Shown piece after piece: positions 1 to 27,914 of a DNA stretch of 27,914 nucleotides. The stretch lies in the IMG/VR virus record IMGVR_UViG_2913118216_000009. One strand, 5' to 3'. Made by a program: the position numbers and the translations under genes. Every line of letters begins with the position of its first letter. The stretch's first letter is position 1. Origin of the DNA: a virus (taxonomy: Duplodnaviria > Heunggongvirae > Uroviricota > Caudoviricetes). The notes under the pieces were generated by a model. The model saw only the letters and a program-made list of their open reading frames with translations. It searched no databases and was not told the DNA's origin.

Positions 1-597
1 ATGAGTAACAACAAAAAGTCGCATTATGAGGATATGAAGAAGTTGTTGTGCGCGGACATACTGCACAGTAGTAAAAAATTCTCCTGGAGGAGAATCATAC
101 TACGTTGCTGGAGACAACCCGGACACAGATTCATGTGTTGGTGGAGGATAGCGAATTGCCTTTACTGTCAGGGAGGGAAATCAAGTATTAAGTGGGCACG
201 AAGAATCCACCGGAGACTTGTTTCAAAATACAATACTGATATTGGATTGGGGGCACAGATCGGGGAAAAATTCAAAATTTATCACTTCGTTGGAATAGTC
301 ATTTGTCCCCAGGCTGTGATTGGCAAAAATGTTCGTATCCGACAAAACACAACGATTGGATTAAAAACAGTTGAAGGAATCAAAGCCATCAGGATCGGAG
401 ACAATGTCGAGATTGGTGCAAATTCATGCATCATCGGTGATGATCTGACCATTGGTGATAACGTGACAATTGGTGCTATGTCATTCGTTAACCGAAACAT
501 TCCTGCTAATAGTGTCTTTATAACCCGCAGAGCCGCACAACTACTACCGCTTGATACGCACTCCACCTCTAACTATTCTGAACAACACAACAAGTGA
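1..597 (+). CDS. Hexapeptide-repeat (left-handed beta-helix) O-acetyltransferase, CysE/WbbJ-like; probable moron or flanking host gene
   Basis: 198-aa ORF starting at window position 1; repeated [LIV]-G-x-x-x-x hexapeptides (IGDNVEIGANSCIIGDDLTIGDNVTIGAMSFV) and an N-terminal region resembling serine acetyltransferases; markedly AT-rich codon usage compared with neighbouring phage genes; convergent with the tail operon. Confidence 0.7.
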   Translation: MSNNKKSHYEDMKKLLCADILHSSKKFSWRRIILRCWRQPGHRFMCWWRIANCLYCQGGKSSIKWARRIHRRLVSKYNTDIGLGAQIGEKFKIYHFVGIVICPQAVIGKNVRIRQNTTIGLKTVEGIKAIRIGDNVEIGANSCIIGDDLTIGDNVTIGAMSFVNRNIPANSVFITRRAAQLLPLDTHSTSNYSEQHNK

Positions 598-24536: not shown

Positions 24537-25040
24537 TCATATCAGGCCGGTGGCATTGATTGTGACCAGCGCTACCGCAGCGGCCAGGACGGGCGTAGAG
24601 TGAAAACGACTTTCCACGGTATAAGCCAGCACGGATAAGCTACGAATTGCATCGCGGGCGCGATCCAGAATTTGAGTACGACGAGCGGCAGTCATATGGC
24701 AAGTTGATACGGCTTCCCCAGCAATCGCCCCCACGCACGCAGTGGCGCTAAGAGCACACAGTTGCATGTTGCCTTCAGTGGCATTATTCACAGGCACGGA
24801 TGGCAGGCAGTTAATTTGGCTTAACATCCCATCCAGTAAACGTGCATCTTCGGTGTAATCCGTAATGGATATAAGCTCATCGCACGTTAAACGGTGCGGT
24901 TGCGCTGGATTTAGTTTGTTGCGCAGGATCTGCGGCCTTATACCAACGGCAACAGCCACATCTTCAAGATTGTGCTCAATTGCAAATGCTCGGCAAGCCG
25001 CATCAAATCGCGCATGTTTAGAGATCTGGTAATCAAACAT
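24537..25040 (-). CDS. CII-like lysogeny establishment regulator (phage 186 CII type)
   Basis: 167-aa ORF, second gene of the leftward operon diverging from the repressor gene; size and position match 186 CII. Confidence 0.55.
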   Translation of the reverse strand: MFDYQISKHARFDAACRAFAIEHNLEDVAVAVGIRPQILRNKLNPAQPHRLTCDELISITDYTEDARLLDGMLSQINCLPSVPVNNATEGNMQLCALSATACVGAIAGEAVSTCHMTAARRTQILDRARDAIRSLSVLAYTVESRFHSTPVLAAAVALVTINATGLI

Positions 25041-25070
25041 TGTTTGCCTCTCGCTAATCCGTAGGATGAA

Positions 25071-25352
25071 TTACGCGTTAAGTGAAATATCACATTCACT
25101 TAAAGCCTGAATGGTTAGCGCGGCCATGTTGACCTCAACCAGGCCTTTCTTCTGCTTACCCTTAGGTTTAATGGGCAATTTCCCGTATTCGATCAGATTT
25201 CTGGCAGTTTCTTTGTTTGTACCAGTACGACGGCAATATTCGTCTAAAGGCAGGTAAGGTTCCGGTATGATGATTGTAATGCTCGGACGCATAAGGCAAA
25301 CTCCATTAGTCAACCTGTACGGTAATACAGGGCTGTAACTGTCAATATTCAC
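25071..25352 (-). CDS. Apl/Cox-like small DNA-binding protein (excisionase / switch regulator); probable start at internal ATG near 25292
   Basis: First gene of the operon divergent from the repressor; about 73 aa from the internal Met; basic helix-turn-helix-like segment (TGTNKETARNLIEYGKL). Confidence 0.5.
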   Translation of the reverse strand: MNIDSYSPVLPYRLTNGVCLMRPSITIIIPEPYLPLDEYCRRTGTNKETARNLIEYGKLPIKPKGKQKKGLVEVNMAALTIQALSECDISLNA

Positions 25353-25411
25353 TTAAACCTACAAAGCAGAGTTTAAACTCGCTTTGAGAAAGATTTCAAG
25401 GAAAAATTTTC
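25293..25411. promoter_or_regulatory. Lysis-lysogeny switch region (divergent promoters and candidate operators)
   Basis: About 120-bp region between divergent Apl-like and CI-like genes; contains inverted repeat CCTGTAC-N5-GTACAGG-like and duplicated TTTAAAC motifs. Confidence 0.45.
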
Positions 25412-25990
25412 GTGAAGCTACAAATTGAATTTTCTCATGGCGGATCAGAAGTCTTGGACAGAGTCATCCAGGCGTATGGTTTCAACACAAAATTAGCCCT
25501 GGCCGAACATCTTGATATAGCAAGTAGCAGCCTGGCTAATCGCTACAAGAGGGATTTTTTTCCAGCAGATATCGTTGTTAGATGCATGGCTGAAACGGGA
25601 GCAACTCTGGAATGGCTTGCGACTGGGCAAGGAAGAAAGTTTAACGATGACGAATTAGACATCATGAAACTGCCGCGTAAGAAGATTGTGGACGGAAAAC
25701 TCTATGATTCCGGTTTGCTAATGCTCGATAAGGTTACTTTTTTACCTGGTAAGCCTTTACCACAGAATCCAATCTGTGTGATTGACAACGCAATGCAGTA
25801 CATTGTTGATCAACACTTTCCCGAAGTTTACGACGATGATTGGTTAGTTGAAATTGAAGGAAAAACAAGTGTGAGAACCCTTACGCGCATCCCCGTAGGC
25901 AAAGTTCGAGTGAGTGGCGTTGGGATGGCATTTGATTGCGCTATCGAAGATATAAAAATTTTAGGTCGTATTATCTTAACTATAAAATAA
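25412..25990 (+). CDS. Immunity repressor, phage 186 CI type
   Basis: 192-aa ORF (GTG start with AAGGAAAAA Shine-Dalgarno), same length as 186 CI as I recall it; transcribed towards the integrase gene and divergent from the Apl/CII operon; no LexA/S24-type cleavage motif seen. Confidence 0.6.
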   Translation: MKLQIEFSHGGSEVLDRVIQAYGFNTKLALAEHLDIASSSLANRYKRDFFPADIVVRCMAETGATLEWLATGQGRKFNDDELDIMKLPRKKIVDGKLYDSGLLMLDKVTFLPGKPLPQNPICVIDNAMQYIVDQHFPEVYDDDWLVEIEGKTSVRTLTRIPVGKVRVSGVGMAFDCAIEDIKILGRIILTIK

Positions 25991-26004
25991 TAAGGAAAAT
26001 TATA

Positions 26005-26574
26005 ATGATAGATTACAAGACTGCATCTAAAGACCAATTAAAAGTAGAAATGAAACGATTGTCTGCCGCTGTTTCAGATACGCCATTTGGTACAAAAAAA
26101 GAATTTTTTCATCTTCCCGAAGTTTTAAACACCGGCGAGGAACCGCTTGGCATAGTAAGCGGTATGATGGATGGCAACACCTGGTTAATAACTTTAACTA
26201 ACCAACGCGTTATCTTCCTCGATAAAGGGATGATATTTGGTGTTAAGCAGGTCGATATTAGCCTTCGTAACATTGTAAGCGTTGGCGGAAAGACTGGACT
26301 GATATTTGGTGAGATAATGATTTCAACAAGCGGACAGAATTACACCATAAAAAACGTTATAAAATCCTCCGTAATTCCTTTTACCAACCTTGTTAATGAG
26401 ACAAGGAATAGTCTGGACAAGCCACAAGTTATCACCGCTCCTACAAGCTCCAACGAAAAATCTTCATTTGATGATGTCATGGATAAAATTGAACGTTTGG
26501 CTGAAATGAAAGCAGAAGGCATTCTTACTGAAGAAGAATTTCAGCAGCAAAAACAACGCATTTTAAACAGCTAA
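26005..26574 (+). CDS. PH-domain plus SHOCT-domain protein (moron between repressor and integrase)
   Basis: ATG at about 26005 with AAGGAAAA Shine-Dalgarno; central region resembles bacterial PH (YdbS/YokE-like) domains; C-terminus IERLAEMKAEGILTEEEFQQQKQRIL matches the SHOCT motif; strongly AT-rich. Confidence 0.6.
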   Translation: MIDYKTASKDQLKVEMKRLSAAVSDTPFGTKKEFFHLPEVLNTGEEPLGIVSGMMDGNTWLITLTNQRVIFLDKGMIFGVKQVDISLRNIVSVGGKTGLIFGEIMISTSGQNYTIKNVIKSSVIPFTNLVNETRNSLDKPQVITAPTSSNEKSSFDDVMDKIERLAEMKAEGILTEEEFQQQKQRILNS

Positions 26575-26577
26575 GCT

Positions 26578-27618
26578 ATGTCTGTAAGAAAATTAACAAA
26601 TGGCCAGTGGATTGCCGATTTCTACACGGTGGATCGAAGCAATGGTAAAGCCGGTAAGCGTATTCGTAAAAAATTCGCTACAAAAGGCGAAGCCCTGGCC
26701 TACGAGAACTATACGCTTCAGCAAGTGGAGAACTCCCCCTGGCTTGGCGAGGGTAAAGACCTCCGTACTCTAAGCGACCTAATCAACATGTGGTACGAAC
26801 GCCACGGCGTAGCTTTGCGCAACGGTCAAAAGCGTAAAGACGCAATGACATGGGCGGCGGAGTGTATGGGATTCCCGCTGGCCACAGAGTTTAATGCTCA
26901 ACTGTTTACAGCATACCGCGCAAAAAGGCTTGATGGGCATTATGCCCGCACTAACAGAGTATCCAAGGTTTCCCCGAAAACAATGAACCTTGAACATGCT
27001 TACTTTCTGGCTATGTTCAATGAGCTTAAACGGATTGGAGAATGGTCAGCCCCTAACCCACTGGAAAACGTCAGACAGTATCGCACTGATGAAACCGAAA
27101 TGGCTTTCCTCACTGCTGAAGAAATTGATCGGCTTTTGCTGGAATGCAAACGCAGTAAAGTAAGTTACTTAGAGTTAGTAGTAAAAATTTGCCTGGCGAC
27201 CGGCGCAAGGTGGAATGAAGCGGCGACACTCAAAAGCTCCCAGATTGCTGGCGGAAAAGTCACCTTCATAAAAACAAAAGGGAAAAGGAACCGTACCATT
27301 CCCTTAGATGATGAACTTCTGGCTGAAATTTCGGAAACAAAAGGCGCTCTGTTTCCGAAGCCCTGCTATAACGCTTTTCGTTCCGCCCTGGAACGTGCAG
27401 GTATTGAATTGCCTTCTGGTCAGCTAACCCACGTATTACGCCATACATTTGCCAGCCACTTTATGATGAATGGCGGGAACATTCTGGTTCTGCAAAAAAT
27501 TCTCGGCCACGCTGACATCACTATGACAATGCGTTATGCCCATTTCGCCCCAAGCCACCTTGAAGATGCTATGCGACTTAACCCCTTAAAATGTCGCAAA
27601 AATGTCGCTGCAGCTTAG
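26578..27618 (+). CDS. int: Tyrosine integrase (P2/186 family site-specific recombinase)
   Basis: 346-aa ORF; C-terminal catalytic region HVLRHTFASHFMMNGGNILVLQKILGHADITMTMRYAHF with the conserved R...H-x-x-R...Y arrangement; located at the prophage end. Confidence 0.9.
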   Translation: MSVRKLTNGQWIADFYTVDRSNGKAGKRIRKKFATKGEALAYENYTLQQVENSPWLGEGKDLRTLSDLINMWYERHGVALRNGQKRKDAMTWAAECMGFPLATEFNAQLFTAYRAKRLDGHYARTNRVSKVSPKTMNLEHAYFLAMFNELKRIGEWSAPNPLENVRQYRTDETEMAFLTAEEIDRLLLECKRSKVSYLELVVKICLATGARWNEAATLKSSQIAGGKVTFIKTKGKRNRTIPLDDELLAEISETKGALFPKPCYNAFRSALERAGIELPSGQLTHVLRHTFASHFMMNGGNILVLQKILGHADITMTMRYAHFAPSHLEDAMRLNPLKCRKNVAAA

Positions 27619-27785
27619 AAATACTGCCGAATACTCACAGATATTAACTAACGTAACTTATTGATAACACTGTAAGTTATTGTTTTTCGTAGATAGTTGA
27701 TGCTTTATAATATAGCCTGTGCTATATCTGTATGTAATGCAATCATCCCTCATGGAACGACGGGATTAGCAAGTCAGGAGGTCTT
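27619..27785. other. Putative attP / prophage-host junction region
   Basis: AT-rich non-coding stretch directly downstream of int; direct repeats AACTTATTG / AAGTTATTG; an IHF-consensus match (TATCAATAAGTTA on the minus strand, about 27655-27667); small palindrome ATATAG..CTATAT. Confidence 0.35.
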
Positions 27786-27914
27786 ATGAATGAGTTCAAG
27801 AGGTGTATGCGCGTGTTTAGTCACTCTCCCTTTAAAGTACGCTTAATGCTGCTCTCGATGTTGTGCGATATGGTCAACAACAAACCGCAGCAAGATAAAC
27901 CTTCCGATAAATAG
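27786..27914 (+). CDS. Small ORF (about 42 aa) with strong ribosome-binding site; prophage moron or host flank
   Basis: AGGAGG about 6 nt upstream of the ATG; translation MNEFKRCMRVFSHSPFKVRLMLLSMLCDMVNNKPQQDKPSDK ends at the window edge; below the ORF-track length cutoff. Confidence 0.35.
   Translation: MNEFKRCMRVFSHSPFKVRLMLLSMLCDMVNNKPQQDKPSDK

Follow-up and report, generated by a model that had tools for sequence, protein, structure and literature searches.

The window analyzed here is a 27,914-nucleotide stretch, read on one strand, from a virus of the class Caudoviricetes (IMG/VR record IMGVR_UViG_2913118216_000009), and the subject of this report is its first gene, which encodes a hexapeptide-repeat acetyltransferase. 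The coding sequence occupies positions 1 to 597 on the plus strand, starts with ATG, and encodes a protein of 198 amino acids with the repeats of a left-handed beta-helix, likeness to CysE, WcaB, and EpsC, and a match to the phage protein family phrog_2154. It converges on a gene at positions 652 to 2355 on the minus strand, the last of the tail/baseplate operon, which we treat as context and not as cargo. The 567-residue product of this gene is a baseplate/spike protein that belongs to phrog_2258 (E value 1.6e-273) and has weak, sub-threshold matches to Phage_base_V (the gp5/VgrG OB domain) and Gp5_C (a C-terminal repeat). The convergent intergenic spacer between the two genes (positions 598 to 651, 54 bp) forms the right edge of an approximately 870-bp cassette that holds the acetyltransferase gene. 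No terminator-like hairpin was found in this spacer, which folded no better than shuffled sequence. Within the gene, Tandem Repeats Finder detected a DNA tandem repeat at positions 432 to 475 on the plus strand, with 2.4 copies of an 18-nucleotide (six-codon) period that corresponds to the hexapeptide periodicity of the beta-helix coils.

The acetyltransferase gene has a guanine-plus-cytosine (GC) content of 42.4% (44.7% at third codon positions, GC3); the values for the remaining prophage and the host flank are 50.4% and 50.6%, respectively. This drop is real but moderate: GC3 is similar in the tail-fiber and integrase genes, and GC content falls to 38 to 42% elsewhere in the window. The initial annotation of this stretch had described a low-GC hexapeptide-repeat acetyltransferase gene convergent with the last tail gene across about 55 bp, and that description was borne out by the Hexapep match given below, the GC content, and the length of the spacer. 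A second low-GC stretch (38 to 42%) lies at positions 25001 to 26500, just upstream of the integrase gene; it spans plus-strand open reading frames (ORFs) at 25412 to 25990 and 25936 to 26574 and is probably a repressor region or more cargo.

The prophage belongs to the P2 family (Peduoviridae) and is ESSI2/Quadragintavirus-like. Other genes in the window encode an HP1 ORF34-like baseplate protein, a tail fiber and its assembly protein, tape measure, sheath, P2-type capsid, terminase, portal, and replication proteins, and DNA identity to the ESSI2 coliphages is 93 to 95% from approximately base 647 to 679 onward. The integrase gene lies at positions 26578 to 27618 and the host gene mntS at positions 27788 to 27914, with the window ending at the mntS stop codon. 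We located the prophage boundaries on the source contig (GCA_005781225.1, VATT01000011.1; locus L002, in which coordinates equal window coordinates plus 10000) by aligning the empty mntS-mntR intergenic region of Escherichia coli K-12 with both junctions. In this three-way alignment, K-12 matches the left junction through ...GCTATATAATATAG and the right junction from TATAATATAGCCTGTGC..., so that the K-12 attachment site attB corresponds to the left arm of attL joined to the right arm of attR around the core TATAATATAG. The attR core lies at positions 27706 to 27715 on the plus strand and marks the right prophage boundary; the attL core lies at window positions -2768 to -2759 (L002 7232 to 7241), beside mntR. 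The resulting attL-attR interval is approximately 30.5 kb, and ESSI2 genomes measure 29.2 to 30.9 kb. In related E. coli prophages at mntS, homology to the host flank ends at exactly the attachment point. We also considered the attP of ESSI2_ev040 as a check on the core, but it was unusable: the integrase-proximal arm is partly similar and the core differs, because ESSI2_ev040 integrates elsewhere, and the empty K-12 site was used instead.

The acetyltransferase gene thus lies within the prophage, 2.76 kb in from attL, and can be neither a host gene nor a marker of the boundary. The initial annotation had placed the gene at the tail end of the prophage and had proposed that, if it were a host gene, it would mark the boundary; both statements fail, as the prophage runs on upstream of window base 1 to the attL core. 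The second attachment-site copy that was to be sought upstream of the window exists, and it lies beyond a three-gene cargo cassette. Going upstream from the acetyltransferase gene, there are approximately 660 bp of non-coding DNA (with one mechanically called ORF of 67 codons), the three-gene cassette, and then the host genes mntR, ybiR, ldtB, and ybiT. The suggestion that the gene might belong to a host polysaccharide locus did not hold, as there is no polysaccharide operon among host neighbors such as mntR, ybiR, and ldtB. The initial annotation had also named a repeat of the core between the acetyltransferase gene and the tail genes as a finding that would speak against phage carriage; a search of the window found no core there, and its single copy in the window is the one at attR. 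The empty mntS-mntR site of K-12 has no such acetyltransferase gene. The prophage is inserted in the short intergenic region between the divergent genes mntR and mntS, 72 bp ahead of the mntS start codon (window 27619 to 27790; L002 7127 to 7241). Integration has separated mntS from the sequence that preceded the core, which phage DNA now replaces. Identity to E. coli K-12 is 91.5% across the ybiR-mntR flank (L002 1 to 7126) and 97.4% on the mntS side (window 27720 to 27914). The divergence of the ybiR-mntR flank, together with the name Escherichia marmotae that databases give to the 198-residue form of the protein, indicates that the source, labeled E. coli, is probably a cryptic-clade Escherichia such as E. 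marmotae.

Comparison with related phages shows that the gene is a phage-borne, discrete cassette of non-essential cargo. ESSI2_ev040, a temperate coliphage cultivated from a fecal E. coli strain (PMC6969025), encodes a protein 90% identical to ours immediately ahead of its baseplate gene, and a block that begins 490 bp before the acetyltransferase gene and reaches into the baseplate gene is collinear between the two, at 82.7% identity. The nearly isogenic prophage of E. coli JNE25-001 shares the upstream cargo and the baseplate gene but has 108 bp where the 868-bp acetyltransferase cassette would be: homology ends at window position -218, so that the left edge of the cassette lies approximately 218 bp before window base 1, and restarts at position 651. 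Related prophages occupy the mntS site in 29 complete E. coli genomes, and their stretch from attL to the baseplate gene contains two variable slots separated by a conserved non-coding segment of approximately 250 bp. In the source strain, slot A holds a cassette of HATPase, STAS-like, and PIN genes and slot B holds the acetyltransferase gene; slot A of JNE25-001 is the same as that of the source strain. In 1919D3 and at least eight others, slot A holds a different member of the acetyltransferase family (43% identity) and slot B a small ORF, and the remaining mntS prophages have unrelated hypothetical genes in their cargo slots. A family member of any kind occurred in one of 80 close relatives of the baseplate gene in IMG/VR, and the DNA of the gene had no match in complete E. 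coli genomes, even when searched in distant mode. Because the slots vary between prophages and only 1 of 80 baseplate relatives carries a family member, the acetyltransferase gene is sporadic, modular cargo that this phage lineage has acquired more than once. The proposal that it was horizontally acquired cargo rather than phage core is therefore upheld by its position inside attL, its discrete edges, and its uneven distribution among relatives.

The remainder of the cargo region has features of its own. The three-gene cassette directly inside attL (L002 7467 to 9341; window -2533 to -659) is very AT-rich (28 to 39% GC) and encodes a 302-residue HATPase_c-like ATP-binding protein, a 116-residue STAS-like DUF4325 protein, and a 203-residue PIN-domain protein. 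From its predicted domains it looks like a partner-switching kinase/antagonist pair with a nuclease, making it a candidate defense or toxin-antitoxin system; PADLOC returned no match except a marginal DrmA-like one for the HATPase. The same cassette is present at 88% identity in the prophages of E. coli JNE25-001 and JNE12-007. The conserved segment of approximately 250 bp (L002 9494 to 9739; window -506 to -261) is common to prophages with different cargo on either side and ends in a terminator-like hairpin on the plus strand (L002 9695 to 9712). An Rfam scan of the cargo region, including this segment, gave no match.

The protein belongs to the hexapeptide-repeat superfamily, with two stretches matching Pfam Hexapep PF00132 (46.8 bits against a cut-off of 27, E value 1.8e-12). 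An N-terminal four-helix region (residues 3 to 77, approximately) precedes the hexapeptide coils, in which a six-residue register spans residues 78 to 176. The match to phrog_2154 is full-length (E value 3e-58, 197 bits, residues 5 to 182 on profile positions 2 to 179 of 185); this family is annotated as "serine acetyltransferase," function unknown. We found 847 homologues at an E value of 1e-5 or lower, and those with organism names come mostly from Enterobacterales. The homologues listed are typically 45 to 60% identical and 180 to 200 residues long, and the named ones are called serine acetyltransferases. EpsC, CysE, and WcaB are the closest curated families, with EpsC and WcaB in the top four NCBIfam matches, but all scores fall far below the cut-offs: 70.3 against 210.65 and 46.1 against 397 for the CysE models TIGR01172 and NF008349, 67.8 against 194.65 for WcaB (TIGR04016), and 84.5 against 150 for EpsC (NF041874). 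In an alignment with E. coli CysE and WcaB, the protein is 31% identical to WcaB and 27% identical to CysE, marginally closer to WcaB. The best matches among solved structures in the PDB are serine acetyltransferases of the CysE type.

CysE binds serine and cysteine through Asp157, Arg192, and His193, and it has an N-terminal helical SATase (serine acetyltransferase) domain that includes Asp92. We compared these positions with the acetyltransferase of the window. The active-site stretch TDIGLGAQIGEKFKIYH (positions 238 to 285, plus strand; codons 80 to 95) contains D80 and H95, which align with CysE Asp143 and His158; in 30 family members, H95 never varies and position 80 is always D or E. Tyr94 stands at the position of the serine-binding Asp157, and Lys128 and Ala129 stand at those of Arg192 and His193, in a loop that is variable across the family. 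No SATase_N match was found, the N terminus is approximately 75 residues shorter than that of CysE, and Asp92 has no counterpart. Because the scores lie below the CysE cut-offs and both the serine-binding residues and the SATase N-terminal domain are missing, this protein is probably not a true serine acetyltransferase. It has no transmembrane or hydrophobic segment (maximum 19-residue Kyte-Doolittle score 1.27) and is basic (isoelectric point 10). Taken together, the protein is predicted to be a soluble enzyme of the CysE fold without serine-binding features, and in this it resembles the WcaB-type sugar acetyltransferases.

The allele in the window differs from that of ESSI2_ev040 at its C terminus. 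In pairwise alignments of the DNA and translations, a 1-nucleotide deletion between bases 528 and 529 (codon 177) shifts the frame and replaces the ancestral 8-residue tail (KSHTITTA) with 22 unrelated residues (residues 177 to 198; positions 529 to 597, plus strand). The family consensus tail YTxK, present in ESSI2_ev040, is lost in this derived tail, and the protein is 198 residues long compared to 184 residues for the other form. The change lies past the last conserved family position. The 198-residue form is a stable allele, since dozens of contigs labeled Escherichia marmotae and related strains encode it, with one member on 26 contigs.

We examined where other family members occur in phages. 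Our survey of viral contigs gave 309 matches, of which 80 loci, representing 33 clusters at 80% identity, were kept. The downstream neighbor is convergent in 56 of 70 viral-contig cases; it encodes a tail-fiber assembly protein in 33 of the 70 and a tail fiber or tail-collar protein in further cases, with these tail genes convergent at distances of 4 to 90 bp. At eight loci, the gene lies between a P2-type sheath gene and the tail-fiber assembly/fiber genes, which is moron site 2 (Z/fun) of P2. The P2-type loci were found with the P2-type sheath protein of locus L056 as the query; tblastn with the window's own sheath protein detected nothing in them. The family members at the Z/fun site (L056, L062, L144, L148-L151, L154) are transcribed against the flanking tail genes. 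The gene for the unrelated membrane acyltransferase NeaT sits at the same P2 moron site 2 in E. coli CFT073 (PMC3573123), and in a P1-like phage-plasmid, a family member and tfa replace part of the S-U tail-fiber region, with its role stated to be unknown (PMC9603915).

No conserved partner gene was found among the surveyed loci: co-directional upstream neighbors are heterogeneous and include some host genes, and there is no conserved operon. The commonest such neighbor is a 136-residue protein that by eye is like a HicB-type antitoxin, and on 12 viral contigs (L089-L091, L105-L115, L120) this HicB-like ORF lies 25 to 82 bp upstream on the same strand. This neighbor is apparently another moron, unrelated to the first, that has been added at the same location. 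In 98% of 160 loci, the acetyltransferase gene lies approximately 10 GC points below its flanks, and this low GC content relative to the surroundings is the signature of a "nomadic" gene.

In species-representative bacterial genomes, we obtained 171 matches, and the loci returned were mostly from Enterobacterales. All seven of the loci examined outside Enterobacterales lie in lipopolysaccharide (LPS) or glycan loci. In Pseudomonas, the gene order is carbamoyltransferase, GT1, Capsule_synth, WaaL, and acetyltransferase; in Ca. Pelagadaptatus, it is GT1, WaaL, MsbA, HldE, acetyltransferase, and an OafA-like protein. A GT9 heptosyltransferase gene adjoins the family member in Orbaceae, and others of these loci have HldE, MsbA, GT1, or GT2 neighbors. 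A GT2 gene also adjoins the homologue in Pseudocitrobacter. The clusters in Pseudomonas and a related marine gammaproteobacterium are LPS core clusters (L045 6778 to 8546, L039 5403 to 8531, L070 6786 to 8552, L053 6586 to 8540). The Pseudomonas arrangement is a known core oligosaccharide cluster, and the literature describes O-acetylation of its product by as yet unidentified enzymes (PMC8005017). The family members in the LPS core clusters of Pseudomonas and the related marine gammaproteobacterium are candidates for these core O-acetyltransferases.

Surface-polysaccharide acetylation, which the initial annotation had proposed for a phage-borne gene, is plausible in view of these contexts and of the missing serine-binding residues. 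We consider it moderately probable that the gene is a stand-alone moron encoding a soluble O-acetyltransferase of the CysE/WcaB branch that modifies LPS or another surface glycan in lysogenic conversion. The gene occupies a variable cargo region between attL and the distal end of the tail/baseplate operon, and under this reading its product would be a soluble, probably trimeric, acetyl coenzyme A-dependent enzyme. Its target would be a lipid-linked envelope glycan, O-acetylated at the cytoplasmic face. Tail fibers that use such assembly proteins commonly bind the LPS core, as in P2, P1, and Mu. Because of this and because the chromosomal homologues lie in LPS core loci, the LPS core would be the most likely target. 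Expression in the lysogen would change the cell surface, and the likely benefit would be altered recognition by glycan-using phages, including the phage's own type, plausibly through receptor masking. Of these points, the substrate, the lysogenic expression, and the benefit are inferred.

Several observations weigh against this interpretation. Most copies in species-representative genomes lie among unrelated host genes (for example, a POT transporter, a GGDEF protein, and a TonB receptor) and are uninformative, and the homologues in LPS loci are only 43 to 51% identical and come from other genera, such that substrate specificity may differ. Our promoter scan found no convincing or consensus sigma-70 promoter upstream of the gene on the plus strand, so that expression during lysogeny is a presumption. 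The frameshifted tail could impair the activity of this particular allele. In the AlphaFold2 (AF2) monomer model, the N-terminal four-helix region is confident, but the predicted local distance difference test score is below 50 over most of residues 120 to 198. Published accounts of the phage copies call their function unknown or list it as "fitness" (PMC9603915, PMC6456863).

Alternative explanations account for parts of the same evidence. It is unlikely, in our assessment, that the gene serves anti-phage defense or counter-defense by acetylating a non-glycan target, whether protein, nucleotide, or small molecule. In ESSI2_ev040 this region contains an abortive-infection gene and in the source strain the HATPase/STAS-like/PIN cassette, P2-like phages cluster defense systems in hotspots that include att-proximal sites and sites within the tail genes (PMC9122126, PMC13586616), and the family is nearly always a solitary gene of unusually low GC content. 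However, no family in PADLOC-DB 2.0 matched the acetyltransferase at an E value of 0.01 or lower, neither of those accounts of the P2 hotspots (PMC9122126, PMC13586616) mentions an acetyltransferase, and the only informative conserved contexts of its homologues are LPS/glycan loci and tail-fiber genes. Receptor masking by glycan acetylation would itself be a defense, so this explanation overlaps with surface-glycan modification. Decay is a still less probable account: the gene could be a non-functional remnant, frameshifted cargo on its way out, and the replacement of a conserved short tail by 22 unrelated residues through the deletion at codon 177, together with the lack of the cassette in most relatives, would fit such an origin. 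Nevertheless, the frame is open over all conserved positions, 27 of the 27 family-invariant residues are present, the altered region lies past the final conserved position, and the 198-residue form is stable in Escherichia marmotae and related strains.

We regard it as highly improbable that the enzyme truly is a serine O-acetyltransferase, encoded by an auxiliary metabolic gene that would increase cysteine production in lysogens or in the lytic cycle. This explanation accounts for the database name, the retained catalytic Asp/His pair, and the best structure and fold matches, all of which are of the CysE type (Foldseek with the weak AF2 model returned only serine acetyltransferases, at template modeling scores of 0.33 to 0.48). 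It conflicts with CysE scores far below cut-off, with the absence of the SATase domain and the serine-binding residues, and with the fact that the homologues lie in LPS loci and not in sulfur-metabolism loci. There is almost no probability left for a host chromosomal or polysaccharide-locus gene just outside the prophage, marking its boundary. A GC content below that of the phage genes, the opposite orientation, and the many family members elsewhere that are flanked by host genes would agree with a host origin, but the attachment-site mapping refutes it: the empty K-12 site does not contain the gene, the cultivated ESSI2_ev040 does, and the DNA is absent from this locus in the complete E. coli genomes searched.

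The gene is an ordinary moron, from a family already catalogued and never characterized. Surface-glycan modification by this family, if it occurs, would have consequences beyond this prophage. Lysogens would differ from non-lysogens in antigenicity and phage susceptibility, a matter relevant to serotyping, to the selection of phages for therapy, and to the question of why such genes are retained beside receptor-binding genes in temperate phages. A widespread family mislabeled "serine acetyltransferase" would gain a name and a function, and in Pseudomonas, the homologues encoded within LPS core clusters are candidates for the enzymes that O-acetylate the core. A broader and more doubtful proposal, which we put forward tentatively, is that phrog_2154 as a whole consists of unrecognized, soluble, phage-borne O-acetyltransferases of the LPS core or O-unit that form a "recognize then hide receptor" module, and that it also includes the Pseudomonas core O-acetyltransferases. 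In such a module, the acetyltransferases would travel together with tail-fiber and assembly genes through temperate phages of P2-like, P1-like, and other types, and acetylation would mask the glycan receptor that the linked fiber recognizes.

We compared the acetyltransferase with characterized enzymes and phage cargo genes. CysE provides the best sequence and structure matches among solved proteins and shares the catalytic pair corresponding to its Asp143 and His158; unlike CysE, the window protein lacks the SATase domain, Asp92, Asp157, Arg192, and His193. WcaB and EpsC are of similar size and likewise have a short helical N terminus followed by a CysE-type beta-helix, and WcaB, like the window protein, keeps the catalytic His and lacks the Arg-His serine-binding pair of CysE. 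However, WcaB and EpsC are enzymes of exopolysaccharide pathways (colanic acid in the case of WcaB), whereas the window gene is carried by a phage and does not lie in a polysaccharide operon.

Among the cargo genes of temperate enterobacterial phages, NeaT (from the P2-like prophage b0847 of CFT073), Oac, and GtrC are likewise low-GC, sporadic acyltransferase morons transcribed against adjacent tail-fiber genes (PMC3573123). They differ in being integral-membrane proteins of the AT3 family (PF01757) that act outside the cytoplasm; the window acetyltransferase has no PF01757 match and no hydrophobic segment. NeuO, encoded by prophage CUS-3 in E. coli K1, is a soluble hexapeptide-repeat O-acetyltransferase carried as cargo, as proposed for the window protein; it acts at the cytoplasmic side, acetylates the K1 capsule (polysialic acid), and gives protection against K1 phage (PMC3046976, PMC13001214). 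In contrast to NeuO, the window gene has no 5' heptanucleotide phase-variation repeat, and it resides in a P2-family prophage rather than a P22-like one; no polysialate acetyltransferase was found among the 49 solved-structure matches of its protein. NeuO is thus the closest functional precedent and not a detectable close relative. With NeuO, Oac, and GtrC, which represent the lysogenic-conversion class, the acetyltransferase gene shares its location as cargo inside a functional temperate phage genome, as seen from attL and attR and from the cultivated phage ESSI2_ev040.

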